Of a stretch of DNA of 5,710 nt, positions 1-5,710 are shown piece by piece; the first letter of the stretch is position 1; the number at the start of each line of letters is the position of its first letter. The position numbers and the translations under genes were made by a program. This DNA is from a virus (lineage: Duplodnaviria; Heunggongvirae; Uroviricota; Caudoviricetes): IMG/VR virus record IMGVR_UViG_2651869755_000011, positions 1 to 5,710 of that record, one strand, 5' to 3'. The notes under the pieces are model-generated. The model did not search any database, had not been told where the DNA came from, and saw nothing but the letters and a program-made list of their open reading frames with translations.

Positions 1-157
1 TATTGCTTACGCCAGAGAAATAACTGGCTGGCTGCTACACCATGTTGCCGGGCAACGAGGGAGACCGTCATCCCTGGTTCAAAGCTCTGCTGAACAATTG
101 CGATCTTTTCCTGTGTGGTACGCCGTCTGCGTTTCTCCGGTCCTAAGACATCAATCA
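1..157 (-). CDS. insC: IS2 OrfA (InsC) transposase regulator, 5' partial (first ~52 codons; rest is outside the window)
   Basis: Minus-strand translation from the ATG at 155-157 gives [52 protein letters not shown], matching the IS2 OrfA N-terminus as I recall it. It is absent from the ORF track because it runs off the window edge. Confidence 0.85.
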
Positions 158-249
158 TCTGCTCTCCAATGACTAGTCTAAAAACTAGTATTAAGACTAT
201 CACTTAAATAAGTGATATTGGTTGTCTGGTGATTCAGGGGGCCAGTCTA
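1..249 (-). mobile_element. IS2 (IS3 family), left end only; the element continues beyond the window start and its terminus is at 249
   Basis: The reverse complement of 231-249 reads TAGACTGGCCCCCTGAATC, which I recognise as the IS2 left terminus. An IS2 OrfA reading frame opens at the minus-strand ATG at 155-157. Identity is from memory of the IS2 sequence, not a search. Confidence 0.9.
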
Positions 250-250
250 G

Positions 251-346
251 AAGTTTTCTAATGGTATTTTGCGTCGTATAGAGAGAGCCGGACCTGATGA
301 TGACTTTTCTTTAGTAAGTATAATGGTGCGTGTGACGTCAGATTAG
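251..346 (+). pseudogene. Orphan 3' coding remnant abutting the IS2 junction; possibly the C-terminus of a gene split by IS2 (by position a candidate late antiterminator Q, unverified)
   Basis: An open frame runs from the IS2 junction (the in-frame TAG at 248-250 lies across the IS terminus) to TAG at 344-346 and encodes KFSNGILRRIERAGPDDDFSLVSIMVRVTSD. It ends immediately before a promoter-like element, which is the Q / pR' arrangement in lambdoid phages. I do not recognise the peptide. Confidence 0.25.
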
Positions 347-376
347 TTGTATAAACCCAGTAGGGAATGCTAATTT
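347..376 (+). promoter_or_regulatory. Candidate sigma70 promoter (pR'-like by position): -35 TTGTAT (347-352), 18-nt spacer, extended -10 TGcTAATTT (368-376)
   Basis: Motifs read directly from the sequence. A second candidate lies just upstream (perfect TATAAT at 319-324). No experimental support. Confidence 0.3.
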
Positions 377-415
377 CCCATACTACAGAGTAAAGAAAAA
401 CTTAATTTTAATGTG

Positions 416-442
416 AAAAGGCTGCTATCAGGCGGCCTTTTT
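416..442 (+). terminator. Putative intrinsic terminator (tR'-like by position)
   Basis: Stem GGCTGC (420-425) pairs with GCGGCC (432-437), including one G-U pair, around a 6-nt loop, followed by TTTTT (438-442) and preceded by an A-run. Confidence 0.45.
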
Positions 443-450
443 ATGTCTGA

Positions 451-783
451 AAAGCTGTGCAGTACGTTAAACACGCTTGTGGTTGTGAATGCCGACTGCG
501 GCGGTATTTTGGCGTGACAGCGCAGGTGCCGTATACCGATGTCTGGACGCATAAACCGGTGCAGTTCTATCCCGGGAAACATCCGTGCGAAAAACCGGCA
601 GAAATGCTGCAGCAGATAATCAGCGCAAGCAGTCGTCCGGGAGACCTGGTTGCAGATTTTTTTATGGGCTCAGGTTCAACGGTAAAAGCGGCACTGGCGC
701 TCGGGCGTCGTGCGATTGGCGTTGAACTGGAGACCGGACGTTTTGAGCAGACAGTCAGGGAAGTTCAGGATTTAATCGTTTGA
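451..783 (+). pseudogene. N6-adenine (N6/N4 family) DNA methyltransferase, C-terminal remnant; the N-terminal catalytic region is missing
   Basis: The 108-aa ORF (457-783, GTG start) contains HPCEKP and DFFMGSGST, which resemble the conserved HPTQKP and AdoMet-binding F-x-G-x-G motifs at the C-terminal end of beta-class amino-methyltransferases. The frame is closed at 448-450 and the 200 bp upstream is noncoding, so no DPPY catalytic motif can be present. Confidence 0.65.
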
Positions 784-832
784 AACGGATGAGATTGCAG
801 AATTAATTACGCACCATTATTATTCTGCTTCC

Positions 833-908
833 GGCCCTTTAGCTCAGTGGTGAGAGCGAGCGACTCATAATCGCCAGGTCGCTGGTTCAAATCCAGCAAG
901 GGCCACCA
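833..908 (+). tRNA. ileZ: tRNA with CAU anticodon, tRNA-Ile2 (lysidine type, AUA decoder) by similarity to E. coli ileX; tRNA-Met cannot be excluded
   Basis: Manual cloverleaf: acceptor GGCCCTT/AAGGGCC, D-stem GCTC/GAGC, anticodon loop CTCATAA (anticodon 866-868), T-arm GCTGG-TTCAAAT-CCAGC, encoded CCA at 906-908. The symbol follows the ileZ-argN-argO cluster described in Stx-type prophages. Confidence 0.85.
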
Positions 909-915
909 TCACATA

Positions 916-992
916 CCGCCATTAGCTCATCAGGAAAGAGCGCCAGCCTTCGAAGCTGGTTGCGCGGAGTTCGGGTCCCCGAAGGCGGTCCA
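916..992 (+). tRNA. argN: tRNA-Arg(UCG)-like, atypical and possibly degenerate
   Basis: Manual fold: perfect 5-bp anticodon stem CCAGC/GCTGG with loop CTTCGAA (anticodon 950-952), canonical U8/A9, D-stem GCTC/GAGC, encoded CCA at 990-992. It also has an A-A mismatch in the acceptor stem, an A-C mismatch in the T-stem and a T-loop of TTCGGGT (G where A58 is normally conserved). Confidence 0.5.
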
Positions 993-1005
993 TTATCTGT
1001 ATCCT

Positions 1006-1082
1006 GCGTTGTTAGCTCAGCCGGACAGAGCAATTGCCTTCTAAGCAATCGGTCACTGGTTCGAATCCAGTACAACGCGCCA
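1006..1082 (+). tRNA. argO: tRNA-Arg(UCU), AGA decoder
   Basis: Manual cloverleaf with perfect acceptor stem GCGTTGT/ACAACGC, D-stem GCTC/GAGC, anticodon stem ATTGC/GCAAT with loop CTTCTAA (anticodon 1040-1042), T-arm ACTGG-TTCGAAT-CCAGT, discriminator G and CCA at 1080-1082. Confidence 0.85.
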
Positions 1083-1097
1083 CACTTATTTTCCCTG

Positions 1098-1121
1098 GCT
1101 CGCTTTTGCGGGCTTTTTTTT
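1098..1121 (+). terminator. Intrinsic terminator directly after the tRNA cluster
   Basis: Stem GCTCGC (1098-1103) pairs with GCGGGC (1108-1113), one G-U pair, loop TTTT, followed by eight T (1114-1121). Confidence 0.6.
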
Positions 1122-1127
1122 AAATGT

Positions 1128-1341
1128 CTCACAATTCAGGCGGTTGACTGTTGTCTGGTTTGCGGGGAGTTTGTTAAAAGAAACTGGCATGGTGAATCCC
1201 CCTGTGCGGAGGGGCAATCAGCGAGTAGGTATATGGGATAATCGCGGATTCAGGTGCTGGTACTGAATTCACCGGGAGGCACCCGGCACCATGCAATGGC
1301 ACATAGCGCCACTCTCCAGCCCCTCTCCGGAGGGGCTTTTC
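1128..1341 (+). repeat. Copy A of a duplicated noncoding module (candidate small-RNA or regulatory unit) ending in an intrinsic terminator
   Basis: Shares ordered blocks with copy B: CTCACAATTCAG, TTGAC(T/A)GTTG, TTTGTTAAAA(G/A)AAA, GCATGGTGAATCCCCCTG(T/A)GCGGAGGGGC, TGAA(T/C)TCACCGGGAGGCACCCGGCACCATG and AGCCCCTCTCCGGAGGGGCTTT. Internal hairpins include CCCCT/AGGGG and CCGGG/CCCGG. Confidence 0.75.
1319..1340 (+). terminator. Intrinsic terminator closing module copy A
   Basis: 7-bp GC-rich stem GCCCCTC (1319-1325) / GAGGGGC (1330-1336), tetraloop TCCG, then TTTT (1337-1340). There is no U-run on the minus strand, so it acts on the plus strand only. Confidence 0.65.
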
Positions 1342-1396
1342 TGTGCCGGATACATCACAGTTTCTGGAACCTTAGGTACTACAGTATCAGTCAGGG

Positions 1397-1405
1397 TGCT
1401 ATATT
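1397..1405 (+). promoter_or_regulatory. Candidate extended -10 promoter (TGcTATATT) for a short transcript ending at the 1532-1558 terminator
   Basis: TG at 1397-1398 and hexamer TATATT at 1400-1405; no convincing -35. About 150 nt downstream is an intrinsic terminator. Confidence 0.3.
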
Positions 1406-1531
1406 TTCAGATGTGATGAAAGCCTGTCAGCAGGCAGGGCGTATCGGAAATGACCCAGTAGAGAAAACGTTGACTCAGATACCGGTGCTGAGTTACCGGG
1501 AAACCGGCATCACATGACCGCTATCCTTCCA

Positions 1532-1558
1532 GGCCCATCCGCTCCGGTGGGCCTTTTT
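1532..1558 (+). terminator. Intrinsic terminator
   Basis: Stem GGCCCA(T)CCG (1532-1541) pairs with CGGTGGGCC (1545-1553), giving 9 bp with one bulged T around loop CTC, followed by TTTTT (1554-1558). Confidence 0.6.
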
Positions 1559-1595
1559 ACTGCAGAAAACAGGTTCCCCGTTAAATGCTATGTTG

Positions 1596-1829
1596 CTCAC
1601 AATTCAGTAAGTTGACAGTTGCCTGTCAGACTGGGCATTTGTTAAAAAAATTTCGCATGGTGAATCCCCCTGAGCGGAGGGGCGACTGGTGACGGTATAA
1701 TCTCTGATTATCAAAACGAGAATGACGCGGGTTTAGTGGCACCGGGCTGAACTCACCGGGAGGCACCCGGCACCATGTGCATGATGATACAGATACGCGG
1801 CTTTAGCCCCTCTCCGGAGGGGCTTTCTT
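1596..1829 (+). repeat. Copy B of the duplicated noncoding module, ending in an intrinsic terminator
   Basis: Same ordered conserved blocks as copy A, with variable sequence between them. It contains a perfect TTGACA (1612-1617) inside the palindrome TGACAG-N4-CTGTCA (1613-1628) and a perfect TATAAT (1696-1701). Confidence 0.75.
1806..1829 (+). terminator. Intrinsic terminator closing module copy B
   Basis: Stem GCCCCTC (1806-1812) / GAGGGGC (1817-1823), loop TCCG, then TTTCTT. Confidence 0.6.
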
Positions 1830-1835
1830 ATGGAC

Positions 1836-1864
1836 AAAAAAAGCCCGCGCTGGGAGACGCGGGC
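1836..1864 (-). terminator. Minus-strand intrinsic terminator, convergent with the copy-B terminator
   Basis: 7-bp stem GCCCGCG (1843-1849) / CGCGGGC (1858-1864) with an 8-nt loop. On the minus strand the hairpin is followed by seven U (plus-strand A-run 1836-1842); there is no U-run on the plus side. Confidence 0.5.
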
Positions 1865-1932
1865 GGCAAGGAATAAACAATAAAACGTGAAGTAATATTT
1901 CAGCTGGCGAATAATACCCCATAGTAATCACT

Positions 1933-1955
1933 CTGCGCAACTGCGCGGTCTTTTT
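1933..1955 (+). terminator. Intrinsic terminator-like hairpin upstream of the esterase gene
   Basis: Stem CTGCGC (1933-1938) / GCGCGG (1943-1948) with one G-U pair, loop AACT, followed by TCTTTTT (1949-1955). Confidence 0.45.
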
Positions 1956-2057
1956 CGAATTGCGGGCTGTAGTCTCCCTTCTGCCATTGTCCTGTAACTT
2001 CCGGACTTCAGCCTGCTCCTTATCTGACTCACAACATTATCCCGCCCGGGAGGATTC

Positions 2058-3911
2058 ATGGCATTTAAACACTATGACGTGGTCAGGGCGGCATCGCCGT
2101 CAGACCTTGCGAAACGACTGACACAAAAACTGAAGGAGGGCTGGCAGCCGTTTGGTAGTCCGGTGGCCATAACCCCTTATACCCTGATGCAGGCGATTGC
2201 AGCAGAAGGTGATGTGGTCGTCAGTGGTGCAACTGAGCCGGAGTGGTACTACGTCATCGTACTGGCCGGGCAATCCAATGCCATGGCTTACGGTGAAGGG
2301 CTTCCGCTTCCGGATTCATACGATGCGCCCCATCCGCGCATTAAGCAACTGGCCCGTCGTAACACAGTGACTCCCGGTGGTGAAGTATGCGTATTTAACG
2401 ACATCATTCCTGCTGACCATTGTCTGCATGATGTTCAGGATATGAGTACGATTAACCATCCCCGGGCTGACCTGAGCAAAGGGCAGTACGGCTGTGTCGG
2501 ACAGGGCTTACATATTGCCAAAAAACTGCTTCCGTATATCCCTAATAATGCGGGGATCCTGCTGGTACCATGCTGTCGTGGTGGTTCGGCATTCACCCAG
2601 GGCACGGAGGGGACATTCAGCGAGTCCACGGGAGCCAGTCAGGATTCGGCTCGCTGGGGAGTGGGTAAGCCGTTATATCAGGATCTGCTTTTCCGCACGA
2701 AGGCAGCATTGCAGAAAAACCCGAAAAACGTTTTGCTGGCGATATGCTGGATGCAGGGGGAATTCGATATGACGAATGCCAGTTACGCCCAGCAGCCAGC
2801 AGCATTTCTTGCAATGGTACAGCAGTTCCGTGCTGACCTTGCCGGGCTGGCAGCGCAGTGTCACGGTGGAAGTCCGGCATCAGTCCCCTGGATTTGTGGC
2901 GACACGACATACGCGTGGAAACAAGAACACGGTACGCAATATGAAGTGGTATATGGTGCATATAAAGGTAAAGAATCCCAGCAGATTTATTTTGTTCCCT
3001 TTATGACCGATGGTAGCGGAGTTAATACACCGACAAACAACCCGTCAGAAGATCCTGATATTGTCGGGTCTGGTTATTACGGTTCGGCATCCCGAACGAA
3101 CAAAAACTGGGTATCATCAAATCGCCCGACGCATTTCAGCTCATGGGCGCGTCGTGGCATTATTCCCGATCGTATGGCAACTGCTATTCTGAACGTAGCC
3201 GGTCGCACCTTAGCCTTCATTAGTGGTAAGGCACCGGAAATCAAACTCTCGCCCGGCGGCGACACGCCATCGGGGCCGTCTGAAGATGCATCCATACGCA
3301 CAATCTCCCTGTTGCCGACAGCCGGAGACGCTGCTGCGCAGGGCTGGAGCATTAAGAATGGCGGAATTCAGTTGTCAGATGGTGTATTTAAGATCACCAA
3401 GCAGAGCAATAAAGCCTGGTCCCTGACGCGCCCGGTGGATGACGCAGTCTCCCTGCTGACACGGGGTGGCAGACTGAGCTGTAAGTTTCGACTGTCAGGC
3501 GCACTGACCAACAATCAGTTCGGTCTGGGAATTTATCTGTATACCGATGTAGCGTTACCTGACGTCGTGGCGATGACCGGGACTGGTAACCCGTTCCTGA
3601 TGTCGTTCTTCACCCAGACCACAGACGGCAAACTGAATCTGATGCATCACAAGAAAGCAGGAAACACAAAGTTGGGCGAGTTCGGGAATTACAGTAACGA
3701 CTGGCAGACGCTGGAGCTGGTGTTCACCGCCGGCAGTGCCACGGTTACTCCGAAACTGAATGGAGTGGCTGGCCCGGCATTCCAGGTCATAAAAGACAGT
3801 CTGACACTGGGGCTGAATGCGCTGACGCTGACGGATATTACCAAAAATGCAGCGTATGGCGTTGAGATAGAAAGTCTGGTGCTGGAGATAAATGCACCGG
3901 CATCATCATAA
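2058..3911 (+). CDS. nanS-p: Prophage-encoded sialate (N-acetylneuraminate) O-acetylesterase, NanS-p-like: N-terminal DUF1737-like region, SGNH/SASA esterase core, long C-terminal domain of unclear function
   Basis: 617-aa ORF with SD GGGAGG 7 nt upstream of the ATG. The N-terminus MAFKHYDVVRAASPSDLAKRLTQKLKEGWQPFGSPV and the esterase block I motif VIVLAGQSNAMAYGEG (putative catalytic Ser73) match the NanS-p family of EHEC prophages as I know it. The position after the tRNA cluster and before the holin is typical. Confidence 0.88.
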   Translation: MAFKHYDVVRAASPSDLAKRLTQKLKEGWQPFGSPVAITPYTLMQAIAAEGDVVVSGATEPEWYYVIVLAGQSNAMAYGEGLPLPDSYDAPHPRIKQLARRNTVTPGGEVCVFNDIIPADHCLHDVQDMSTINHPRADLSKGQYGCVGQGLHIAKKLLPYIPNNAGILLVPCCRGGSAFTQGTEGTFSESTGASQDSARWGVGKPLYQDLLFRTKAALQKNPKNVLLAICWMQGEFDMTNASYAQQPAAFLAMVQQFRADLAGLAAQCHGGSPASVPWICGDTTYAWKQEHGTQYEVVYGAYKGKESQQIYFVPFMTDGSGVNTPTNNPSEDPDIVGSGYYGSASRTNKNWVSSNRPTHFSSWARRGIIPDRMATAILNVAGRTLAFISGKAPEIKLSPGGDTPSGPSEDASIRTISLLPTAGDAAAQGWSIKNGGIQLSDGVFKITKQSNKAWSLTRPVDDAVSLLTRGGRLSCKFRLSGALTNNQFGLGIYLYTDVALPDVVAMTGTGNPFLMSFFTQTTDGKLNLMHHKKAGNTKLGEFGNYSNDWQTLELVFTAGSATVTPKLNGVAGPAFQVIKDSLTLGLNALTLTDITKNAAYGVEIESLVLEINAPASS

Positions 3912-3996
3912 AAAGTGAGCCAGCCAAATGGAAGGTATCGTTAAACTCACCGGTAGTGTCAGTGGGTCGTCTGAGATGCCTGCATGAGTTATCAGA

Positions 3997-4026
3997 GCCA
4001 TCAGTACTTAACTGGTGGCTTTTTTT
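3997..4026 (+). terminator. Intrinsic terminator between the esterase gene and the holin
   Basis: 8-bp stem GCCATCAG (3997-4004) / CTGGTGGC (4012-4019) with one G-U pair, 7-nt loop, followed by TTTTTTT (4020-4026). Confidence 0.5.
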
Positions 4027-4061
4027 ATTGTTGTCAGCTTCCGGATAACGGGAGACGGGGT

Positions 4062-4277
4062 ATGTACCAGATGGAAAAAATCACAACAGGTGTGTCATAC
4101 ACCACGTCAGCGGTGGGAACGGGCTACTGGTTCCTGCAGTTGCTGGACAGGGTTTCCCCGTCTCAGTGGGCGGCAATAGGCGTGCTGGGGAGTCTGCTGT
4201 TTGGGCTGCTGACATATCTGACTAACCTGTATTTCAAAATCAGAGAGGACCGTCGTAAGGCTGCACGGGGAGAGTAA
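4062..4277 (+). CDS. S: Class II holin (phage 21 S-type pinholin), 71 aa, with dual-start motif MYQM (Met1 at 4062, Met4 at 4071)
   Basis: [71 protein letters not shown] closely resembles the phage 21 S protein as I recall it, with two hydrophobic segments and a charged C-terminus. SD GGAGACGGGG lies upstream. The ORF-track start at 3984 would add an N-terminal extension that overlaps the upstream terminator and has no RBS. Confidence 0.85.
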
Positions 4278-4281
4278 TTCA

Positions 4282-4626
4282 ATGACTCAAAACTATAAAC
4301 TGATTGTGAAAGGGATCCGCAATTTTGAGAATAAAGTTACGGTAACTTTAGCGTTACGGGACAAAAAACGCTTTGACGGTGAAATTTTTGACCTGGACAT
4401 CTCGCTGGACCGTGTTGAAGGTGCCGCGCTGGAGTTTTATGAGGCAGCAGCCAGAAGGAGCATCAGACAGGTCTTCCTGGATGTTGCTGCCGGGTTATGT
4501 GAAGGGGATGAGCAGTCGCCGGAAAAGCGCCCCGTAATTTTAGAGGCGCAGGATGTGTTGATAACCTACAGAGGAAAACTACCGGGAATAATTACGGGTT
4601 CTCTGAAGAGTCCGCCGAAATGGTAA
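4282..4626 (+). CDS. Hypothetical 114-aa protein inserted between holin and endolysin (function unknown; possibly comparable to the uncharacterised genes found between S and R in some E. coli prophages)
   Basis: ATG at 4282 is 4 nt after the holin stop, with SD GGGGAGAG at 4267-4274, so it is translationally coupled to the holin. The sequence looks like ordinary coding sequence. I do not recognise the protein. Confidence 0.6.
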   Translation: MTQNYKLIVKGIRNFENKVTVTLALRDKKRFDGEIFDLDISLDRVEGAALEFYEAAARRSIRQVFLDVAAGLCEGDEQSPEKRPVILEAQDVLITYRGKLPGIITGSLKSPPKW

Positions 4627-4864
4627 TTTTACCAGCATATTTTTCATCCAGTAATACAGCAAGCCGCCTGAAAGAGTCTTGTTGTTCCTGAGACCATTTG
4701 GGATTGCATGATTCAAACTGGATTGATGCCAGCGTTGATTGCATCTGTTCCCTTGGAATTGAGAATGCCAGATATGAGAAGGCGACGGTAAGGGTATTCA
4801 CGTCTTCCCGAAGCCTGGAAATGCTGTCGAGCAACTCCTGTAGAGAAATGGTGTTATTGTCCAT
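4592..4864 (-). CDS. Possible 90-aa hypothetical protein on the opposite strand, convergent with and overlapping the 3' end of the 114-aa ORF by 35 nt
   Basis: Minus-strand ATG (4862-4864) is preceded by SD GAGGA at 7-nt spacing. A promoter-like pair lies upstream on the minus strand (TTGCCT, 19-nt spacer, TACAAT). It fills most of an otherwise unexplained 343-bp gap between ORF114 and the endolysin. No recognisable homology. Confidence 0.4.
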   Translation of the reverse strand: MDNNTISLQELLDSISRLREDVNTLTVAFSYLAFSIPREQMQSTLASIQFESCNPKWSQEQQDSFRRLAVLLDEKYAGKITISADSSENP

Positions 4865-4896
4865 AAATAATCCTCATGATTGTATTGACCTGTTAG

Positions 4897-4916
4897 CAGC
4901 CTGAGGCAACAGGCTG
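4897..4916. promoter_or_regulatory. Perfect 7-bp inverted repeat CAGCCTG-N6-CAGGCTG between the putative minus-strand gene and the endolysin; candidate operator
   Basis: Read directly. There is no U-run on either side, so it is unlikely to be a terminator. It overlaps the -35/spacer of the putative minus-strand promoter. Confidence 0.3.
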
Positions 4917-4969
4917 GAACTGATAAACATATCCAGGGCTCAGAAACCGATAAATCCTGATAAATATCC

Positions 4970-5623
4970 ATGAACGCAAAAATCAGATACGGCCTGTCGG
5001 CTGCCGTTCTGGCGCTGATTGCCGCTGGTGCGCCTGACATTCTCGACCAGTTTCTGGATGAAAAGGAAGGTAACCACACCACGGCATACCGTGATGGCGC
5101 GGGTATCTGGACCATCTGCCGCGGTGCCATCCTGGTGGATGGCAAACCTGTCGTTCCGGGCATGAAGTTGTCGAAGGAAAAATGCGACCGGGTTAACGCC
5201 ATTGAGCGTGATAAGGCGCTGGCATGGGTGGAGAAAAACATCAAAGTGCCATTGACCGAACCCCAGAAAGCGGGGATCGCGTCATTCTGTCCGTACAACA
5301 TTGGTCCCGGTAAGTGTTTCCCGTCGACGTTTTACAGACGAATTAATGCTGGCGATCGCAGGGGAGCATGTGAGGCGATTCGCTGGTGGATTAAGGACGG
5401 TGGCAGAGACTGCCGTATTCGTTCAAATAACTGCTATGGACAGGTCTCACGGCGTGACCAGGTGAACCGCCCCGGGTTTCCTGGAGAGTATTTTATCTGT
5501 GAACTCAGGCTGCCAGATCATCGTTTCCGATGGAAGCATAATAAGCTTTTTCTGCTTCTGCCGGAGGAGTATGGCCCAGCCTTTCCAGCAATCGTCGATT
5601 GTTATACCAGTCCACCCACGTGA
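4970..5623 (+). CDS. R: SAR-type phage endolysin (T4-lysozyme-like muramidase, phage 21 R type), 3' end disrupted by IS insertion: codons 1-164 (4970-5461) are native, the last 53 codons are IS-derived
   Basis: N-terminal signal-anchor-release segment MNAKIRYGLSAAVLALIAAGAP, catalytic E33/D42/T48 spacing (E-8x-D-5x-T) and overall similarity to phage 21 R. The frame runs straight from ...YGQVSRRDQ into the IS terminus TGAACCGCCCC at 5463. Family members are about 165-185 aa, so roughly 10-15 native C-terminal residues appear to be replaced. Confidence 0.8.
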   Translation: MNAKIRYGLSAAVLALIAAGAPDILDQFLDEKEGNHTTAYRDGAGIWTICRGAILVDGKPVVPGMKLSKEKCDRVNAIERDKALAWVEKNIKVPLTEPQKAGIASFCPYNIGPGKCFPSTFYRRINAGDRRGACEAIRWWIKDGGRDCRIRSNNCYGQVSRRDQVNRPGFPGEYFICELRLPDHRFRWKHNKLFLLLPEEYGPAFPAIVDCYTSPPT

Positions 5624-5710
5624 GTGTGGCCAGTTCCACTTCTGCACGGTTTTTCCAGCTCTTACGGTGTATTACCTCCGCTTTGTAAAGACCATTGATG
5701 CTCTCCGCCA
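5463..5710 (-). mobile_element. IS629/IS1203-like IS3-family element, right end only (continues beyond the window end), inserted into the endolysin gene
   Basis: Terminal inverted repeat TGAACCGCCCCGGGTTTCCTGGAGAGT at 5463-5489. The minus strand encodes the C-terminus of an IS3-family OrfB transposase ending LERLGHTPPAEAEKAYYASIGNDDLAA, which I recognise as IS629-like from memory. Confidence 0.85.
5505..5710 (-). CDS. IS3-family transposase OrfB, C-terminal fragment (5' part outside the window)
   Basis: Minus-strand translation AESINGLYKAEVIHRKSWKNRAEVELATLTWVDWYNNRRLLERLGHTPPAEAEKAYYASIGNDDLAA with stop codon at 5505-5507 (TGA on the minus strand). Confidence 0.85.
   Translation of the reverse strand, partial: AESINGLYKAEVIHRKSWKNRAEVELATLTWVDWYNNRRLLERLGHTPPAEAEKAYYASIGNDDLAA

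Follow-up and report, generated by a model that had tools for sequence, protein, structure and literature searches.

IS629 is an insertion sequence of 1310 bp with the genes orfA and orfB, which are joined by a programmed -1 frameshift, and it encodes a transposase of the DDE (rve) type. IS1203 and IS3411 are isoforms of IS629, and the IS629 subtypes differ from each other by 4-5% (Rump et al. 2011, PMC3271280). In E. coli O157, 62% of the IS629 copies are located in prophages, and the duplications of 3-4 bp formed by the element are kept at 21 of 47 sites in O157 genomes (PMC3271280). Phage endolysins of the signal-anchor-release (SAR) type are exported via the Sec system and tethered in an inactive state until the holin dissipates the membrane potential and thereby sets them free (PMC6116005). 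In Stx-type phages, SAR endolysins are paired with pinholins (PMC10462455), and in endolysins of the P21/P22 type an arginine residue on the C-terminal helix forms a salt bridge to the catalytic glutamate (PMC6024848).

The DNA analysed in this study (5,710 bp, in the following called the window) is the entire contig LJYC01000082.1 of assembly GCA_001306715.1. It belongs to E. coli JA37 (LJYC00000000), a uropathogenic urosepsis blood isolate from a set of eight such strains that were cultured from the blood of septic patients. The draft genome was sequenced on a MiSeq (2x250), assembled with the A5 pipeline and comprises 193 contigs. The prophage on this contig is lambdoid and Qin/Stx-phage-like, and the open reading frame at positions 4970-5623 is that of a P21/Stx-phage-type SAR endolysin of family GH24, which runs into an IS629-type element. 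The features of the window are as follows.

1 to 249, minus strand: left end of an IS2 element at the other boundary of the contig; 52 residues from 3-158 (minus strand) match the NCBIfam model of the IS2 repressor TnpA (E 9e-33)
4062 to 4277, plus strand: class II (P21 S-type) holin gene of 71 aa, about 700 bp upstream of the endolysin gene (Pfam Phage_holin_2_1, E 2e-32)
4970 to 5623, plus strand: chimeric open reading frame of 217 aa from the program-made list of reading frames; it begins with MNAKIRYGLSAAVLALIAAGAPDILDQ and ends with ...SRRDQVNRPGFPGEYF...CYTSPPT
4970 to 5461, plus strand: native part of the endolysin gene (R / rrrQ-type GH24 lysozyme); codons 1-164 here correspond to residues 1-166 of the intact 177-aa allele
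5029 to 5034, plus strand: single copy of the hexamer TGCGCC, of which the closest relatives carry two tandem copies (alignment with 118UI)
5460 to 5462, no strand: AGG, the last native bases before the IS and the presumptive 3-bp target, with a duplication to be expected at the far end
5462 to 5623, plus strand: foreign tail VNRPGFPGEYF...CYTSPPT of 53 residues, consisting of the junction codon GTG, 52 IS codons and the stop codon TGA
5463 to 5710, minus strand: right-hand 248 bp of an IS629 isoform, opposite to the endolysin gene and cut by the contig end
5463 to 5487, no strand: IRR, terminal inverted repeat of the IS629-type element, about 25 bp, identical to the end of the 1310-bp copy of 118UI
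5505 to 5710, minus strand: terminal 67 codons and stop codon of the IS transposase gene orfB, in antisense overlap with the chimeric tail

A search of 5,426 complete E. coli genomes revealed prophages of human isolates, e.g. 118UI, VR50 and ML35, as the closest relatives (99.6% over positions 3950-5462). The prophage of strain 118UI, which is located next to ompW (NZ_CP032515.1), showed no substitutions over window positions 263-5462 (about 5.2 kb) and differed by one 6-bp indel and by an IS copy of its own. Positions 263-1256 correspond to L002:1-994 of the 118UI locus with zero mismatches, and positions 1244-5462 to L002:2295-6519, with no substitutions and one real indel. Within positions 4900-5462, the two alleles are identical except for the 6-bp deletion, and they diverge from 5463 onward: past ...GACCAGG (5462), 118UI continues with AGAGCGCGCTGG..., whereas the window reads TGAACCGCCCCGGG..., an IS terminus common to the window, the 118UI copy and the copies of O157:H7. 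Codon 164 (Q) of the window allele ends at 5461, and base 5462 (G) is still native, being the first base of GAG. The lysozyme of 118UI comprises 177 amino acids and has the C-terminal end ...SRRDQESALACWGIDK; therefore, 11 native residues (ESALACWGIDK) were lost, and 53 IS-encoded residues stand in their place. Endolysin gene and IS share a few bases at most at the joint, and a chance resemblance is excluded because the break matches the IS terminus to the base.

The preliminary description of this DNA, made from the letters alone, had placed the native part up to codon 164 (5461), the IS from 5463 onward and the stop at 5623 after 53 IS-encoded residues; the list of reading frames and the alignment to 118UI gave the same coordinates. 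Its central claim, namely that an IS629-like element interrupts a phage lysozyme gene of the SAR type close to the 3' end and thereby yields a chimeric reading frame, is borne out by the domain matches, the 118UI alignment and the IS copies alike, and the number of missing residues, which it had left to a comparison with intact homologues, is the 11 counted on the 177-aa allele.

The length of the foreign tail has a simple cause. As the IS starts with TGA, frame 0 stops at once when the IS is entered from the joint end, frames 1 and 2 stay open for 12 and 52 codons, respectively, and the 53 residues result from an insertion that happens to be in the third phase. In random sequence, an open run of 53 codons is met with a frequency of (61/64)^53 = 0.08, and the run is thus unremarkable and an accident of insertion phase. 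The tail contains eight proline and three glycine residues and no hydrophobic stretch, and no Pfam match was obtained for its 53 residues.

The junction was absent from the 5,426 complete E. coli genomes as well as from 185,579 species-representative genomes, and a search of about 15 billion proteins gave the chimeric protein on one contig only. Apparent full-coverage matches of the junction elsewhere were rejected, as all of them consisted of two separate pieces, a lysozyme gene and a nearby IS. As the prophage DNA around the insertion is the same as in 118UI, the event is a recent one and specific to this strain. Other aberrant lysozymes occur in public assemblies on one contig each, namely an N-terminal transposase-lysozyme fusion (P0029) and two proteins with foreign C-termini (P0012 and P0056). 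They have other break points and partners and none has the 5462/5463 junction, but they illustrate that broken and fused forms of this gene arise sporadically; most likely, these singletons are assembly errors or other disruptions. Three proteins scoring above the intact ones (P0001-P0003) were considered as further IS chimeras and were rejected, as they are internally duplicated lysozymes and probably assembly errors.

The identity of the element was determined from its terminus and its coding part. The IRR pairs as an inverted repeat with the other end of the 118UI copy (TGAACCGCCCCGGGTTTCCTGGAGA versus TGAACCGCCCCGGGAATCCTGGAGA). The orfB fragment matched Pfam rve_3 and rve_2 as well as positions 317-369 of 369 of the NCBIfam model NF033516 (IS3 family transposase), and it encodes the same C-terminus as orfB of the 118UI copy (296 aa). 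Positions 5463-5710 differ from L002:993-1240 by one mismatch (5490 A/G; 99.6% identity over 248 bp) and are 98.4% identical to copies of O157:H7 annotated in RefSeq as 'IS3-like element IS1203 family', these RefSeq-annotated copies being the reference for the isoform identity. The window holds only the last 67 codons of orfB, and the full architecture was read from 118UI as a proxy. The complete IS of that strain has 1310 bp; TGAACCGCCCCGGGTTTCCTGGAGA... and ...TCTCCAGGATTCCCGGGGCGGTTCA form its ends, a copy of the 3-bp duplication AGG lies on either side of it, and its genes specify an OrfA of 108 aa and an OrfB of 296 aa. Over all 1310 bp the element is 96.2-96.3% identical to the IS1203-family copies of O157:H7, one of which is flanked by the duplication AAT. 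The designation 'IS629-like' was right as judged by terminus, identity and IS3 transposase model, because the identity to the O157:H7 copies agrees with the isoforms and the subtype range described for IS629 (PMC3271280). That IS629 is abundant in O157 lineages, as had also been pointed out, is true but irrelevant here, since JA37 is not an O157 strain.

The 1310-bp IS629 isoform of 118UI itself (L002:993-2302) is located between the tRNA genes and the esterase gene, at window positions 1254-1256, with the target site duplication AGG. The insertion sites of JA37 and 118UI both read CAGG directly before the right inverted repeat, and the element has the same orientation in both. The shared CAGG may reflect a target preference or a coincidence.

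Very likely, an IS629 isoform (IS3 family, 1310 bp) jumped into the SAR endolysin gene of the JA37 prophage, at codon 167 of 177, and left behind a passive fusion, whose product is probably unstable or inactive. The right inverted repeat abuts ...GACCAGG, and the transposase genes are antisense to the endolysin gene. Translation from the unchanged endolysin start would then read through the joint and meet no stop for 53 codons in this phase. The product would comprise residues 1-164 with the SAR anchor, the catalytic Glu/Asp/Thr residues and the Arg pair, followed by a Pro/Gly-rich tail that is predicted to be disordered. The fusion would be a passive by-product of transposition and not a designed feature. 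A simple insertion, which we infer here, predicts that the far IS629 end reads ...CCCGGGGCGGTTCA and then AGGAGAGCGCGCTGGCGTGCTGGGGAATTGACAAATAA; this end should be flanked by the duplicated AGG and by AGAGCGCGCTGGCGTGCTGGGGAATTGACAAATAA, with the final 32 bp of the endolysin gene followed by the Rz region. The far end of the IS, the second copy of the target and Rz/Rz1 all fall outside this contig.

The junction could also be the edge of an IS629-mediated rearrangement, either an adjacent deletion or a recombination of two IS629 copies. In that case, the 3' end of the endolysin gene, Rz/Rz1 and possibly morphogenesis genes would be gone or moved in JA37. This possibility, which we consider clearly the less probable one, is raised by the contig itself, which ends inside the IS with the other flank beyond it and carries a second IS (IS2) that bounds the 5.2-kb segment on the left, and by the fact that less than half of the O157 IS629 sites keep a matching duplication (21/47; PMC3271280). 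However, short-read contigs stop at any multicopy IS, rearranged or not, the sister prophage of 118UI is complete downstream of the endolysin gene (Rz, terminase, portal), and positive evidence for a rearrangement was not found.

Both ends of the contig run 248-249 bp into two different IS elements, i.e. about one 250-bp read, and we take such ends inside a multicopy IS for the usual mark of true unique-repeat junctions in short-read assemblies. A wrong joining of endolysin gene and IS by the assembler might be suspected in a short-read draft of 193 contigs from the A5 pipeline and for a protein present on one contig only, but it is highly improbable, as the break lies exactly where the IS inverted repeat starts, the few bases shared at the joint are too little for a k-mer misjoin, the contig contains no Ns and both of its ends extend into repeats by roughly the length of a read. 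As both ends carry an IS on the same strand, the contig was also considered as a composite transposon or a circle bounded by IS elements; this was rejected, the left element being IS2 and the right one IS629.

With regard to the native part of the protein, Pfam Phage_lysozyme (PF00959) matched residues 31-163 with an E-value of 2e-23 over profile positions 2-123 of 125. The domain is almost complete, with a score of 84 bits for the chimera versus 86 bits for the native protein. The endolysin aligns to R21 (3HDE) and RrrD (4ZPU). The catalytic triad Glu-8-Asp-5-Thr corresponds to E33/D42/T48 in the window allele and is invariant in the alignment of homologues; it aligns one-to-one and without gaps with E35/D44/T50 of the R21 chain 3HDE_A, which we take to be the triad assigned by Sun et al. 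2009, and the catalytic residues are intact as previously described.

The N-terminal segment YGLSAAVLALIAAGAP has a composition suited to a weakly hydrophobic, Ala/Gly/Ser-rich, uncleaved SAR segment and is predicted to be helical; it is a candidate signal-anchor-release segment, and its end is two residues shorter in the window allele. The 6-bp in-frame loss changes AAGAPAPDIL to AAGAPDIL, so that the SAR transmembrane segment lacks Ala-Pro at its C-terminal edge. The SAR domain had been described as intact; the segment is indeed present, but the alignment with 118UI showed this loss at its end. The short TGCGCC form was detected in 2 of about 3,260 complete E. coli genomes with a match, and in one of them (AR_0013) it is part of a full-length 175-aa lysozyme of a different prophage. 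The loss is a rare variant, which has probably arisen by slippage more than once, and it is compatible with an otherwise intact gene.

The lost C-terminus is strongly conserved. Among 59 cluster representatives with 76-97% identity, E167, S168, L170, C172, W173 and G174 are invariant and A169 is nearly so; the corresponding family motif E167-S168-x-L170-x-C172-W173-G174 is absent from the window allele, which carries VNRPGFPG... in its place. The pattern RRxxE....CWG was present in 108 of 120 cluster representatives, the exceptions being singletons with foreign ends or internal duplications. Intact homologues that naturally end at ...SRRDQ, which the preliminary description had considered, were not found, as none of the 120 representatives ends there or near RRDQ, and the reading as a chimera stands. 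R21 (3HDE) and RrrD (4ZPU) also align across the lost segment (GLMTRREIEREICLWG versus GQVSRRDQESALACWG), R21 through ...CLWG. C172 is one of eight invariant cysteines and is lost in the chimera.

The eight invariant cysteines of the endolysin family are C52, C74, C109, C118, C136, C150, C157 and C172. In a family of periplasmic enzymes, this number points to as many as four disulfide bonds.

A native homologue was modelled with AlphaFold at a mean pLDDT of 81; the last helix spans residues 161-171 in this model, and the pLDDT at the C-terminus is a moderate 76-80. Accordingly, the cut at 166/167 falls into the middle of this predicted helix. The conserved Arg pair (R161 and R162 of the window allele) ends two residues before the cut and is retained. 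The native model matched GH24 endolysins including those of R21, RrrD, P22 and P1 Lyz, and SpmX (6H9D) was among the fold matches. In the model of the chimera, the core is kept at lower confidence, and the pLDDT is below 50 for residues 146-217 and 22-35 in the tail, although AlphaFold confidence is no measure of stability. It had been stated that only the extreme C-terminus is replaced. The position near the 3' end is correct, but the damage was understated, since the cut is mid-helix and six invariant residues are gone. An analogy to the C-terminal helix of T4 lysozyme was dropped, because the profile comparison aligned only the catalytic region (27 columns, probability 7%).

Judged from sequence and models, the chimeric endolysin is probably unstable, inactive or poorly active. 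An impairment is likely because the helix with the Glu-bridging Arg is halved and six invariant residues including C172 are removed. If the chimera were inactive, the pinholin would depolarise and kill the cell on induction, and no lysis would follow. A smaller chance has to be given to the opposite view, according to which the chimera is an active or only mildly attenuated SAR endolysin and this step would not prevent lysis. The chimera still contains the SAR segment, the catalytic Glu/Asp/Thr residues and the Arg pair, the lysozyme profile is matched up to position 123 of 125, and the tail has no hydrophobic segment likely to hold the enzyme in the membrane. Some residual activity is conceivable because triad and Arg pair are retained and the Pfam domain is almost complete. 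Full or nearly full activity, however, would have to be reconciled with a last helix that is halved and then followed by the helix-breaking VNRPGFPG, with the loss of invariant residues among which are both C172 and W173, with the lack of any natural homologue ending at the cut point and with a model confidence that drops from residue 146 on. That the chimera is an attenuated or re-regulated, 'detoxified' prophage lysin kept by the host, whose disordered IS-encoded tail would alter its release or activity, is very improbable; such a protein would be comparable in spirit to co-opted phage muramidase domains such as SpmX.

For genome annotation, it follows that the 'lysozyme' of 217 aa called on this contig should be flagged as a pseudogene, as it is a fusion of gene and IS. 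The chimera represents a natural C-terminal truncation/replacement mutant of a Stx-phage/Qin-type SAR endolysin. If tested, such a mutant would be informative about the function of the last helix and the eighth conserved cysteine, although an engineered deletion would answer this more cleanly. Beyond this, the insertion is one more documented way by which IS elements erode prophages and has little wider weight.

The lysis cassette of the window consists of the holin gene, a YdfR/DUF1327 gene, an antisense 90-aa reading frame and the endolysin gene. The holin (4062-4277) is the cognate pinholin-type partner of the SAR endolysin. This holin, for which a longer reading frame runs from position 3984, begins with MYQMEK and thus has Met1 and Met4, which presumably resembles the dual-start (antiholin/holin) arrangement of S21. 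The 90-aa reading frame (4592-4864, minus strand) lies between ydfR and the endolysin gene, overlaps the 3' end of ydfR, has no Pfam match and is annotated in RefSeq as a hypothetical protein.

Upstream of the cassette, three phage tRNA genes are located at positions 833-1082, namely tRNA-Met (CAT) according to ARAGORN, followed by two tRNA-Arg genes (TCG and TCT). The first of them is a tRNA-Met (CAT) in the ARAGORN prediction, whereas RefSeq annotates the identical gene of 118UI as tRNA-Ile. No stx genes were found between the tRNA genes and the esterase gene. The latter (2058-3911) is intact and encodes a NanS-p-like sialate O-acetylesterase of 617 aa (DUF1737, SASA and DUF6645 domains), of the kind found downstream of stx in Stx phages. 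An N6/N4 DNA methyltransferase gene at positions 514-783 is truncated at its 5' end; the same pseudogene occurs in 118UI and a diverged form in AR_0013. Because this pseudogene is annotated in both strains, its truncation predates the IS events.

At the left boundary, the IS2 end cuts a gene for a PP2C Ser/Thr phosphatase, the 3' part of which is found at window positions 250-346. In 118UI, L002:1-84 represents the end of this gene, which in the intact prophage of that strain directly follows Q and a Ser/Thr kinase gene and precedes the lysis cassette. Hence, the late operon of JA37 is interrupted by IS elements at no fewer than two points over 5.5 kb, IS2 in the PP2C gene downstream of Q and IS629 in the endolysin gene, and this fits an ongoing decay of the prophage. 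The JA37 prophage may plausibly be cryptic in view of the IS2 end at the left boundary of the contig; what the contig shows of it ends inside an IS copy on either side.

Like the window endolysin, R21 of phage 21 (3HDE/3HDF) and RrrD of DLP12 (4ZPU) have the same fold (Foldseek E about 1e-7) and the E35/D44/T50 spacing. An N-terminal Ala/Gly-rich, putative membrane segment and the C-terminal RRxxExx.C.WG motif are also common to these proteins and the family of the window endolysin, and a P21 S-type holin is encoded upstream, as in R21-type systems. The identity to R21 and RrrD is about 27%, and the window family is distinguished from them by an additional Cys-rich insert (DCRIRSNNCY) and by its eight invariant cysteines; in addition, the counterpart of the final ~10 residues of R21 is missing from the window allele.

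The JA37 contig and the 118UI prophage share the gene order of truncated methylase, three tRNAs, SASA esterase, holin, YdfR and endolysin. The prophage of 118UI appears complete, with int/xis by ompW, replication genes, Q, the kinase/PP2C pair, tRNAs, lysis genes, Rz, terminase and portal. Its endolysin gene is full-length (177 aa) and followed by Rz and terminase, whereas that of JA37 is cut by IS629, and 118UI has neither the IS2 insertion nor the endolysin insertion nor the 6-bp deletion, all of which are present in JA37.

Furthermore, the IS629/IS1203 insertions in lambdoid prophages of O157:H7 and O111 (PMC3271280) involve the same type of IS and the same kind of target as in JA37. In several O157:H7 genomes, the IS is located 60-270 bp downstream of the homologous lysozyme gene and is antisense to it as in JA37, and because of these copies an IS629 element next to this lysis cassette is commonplace. 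In O157:H7, the insertion is intergenic and leaves a lysozyme of 177 aa intact, whereas in JA37, whose host is a urosepsis isolate and not an EHEC strain, it lies inside the coding sequence. The JA37 allele is thus a strain-specific but ordinary IS629 insertion allele of a known prophage endolysin.
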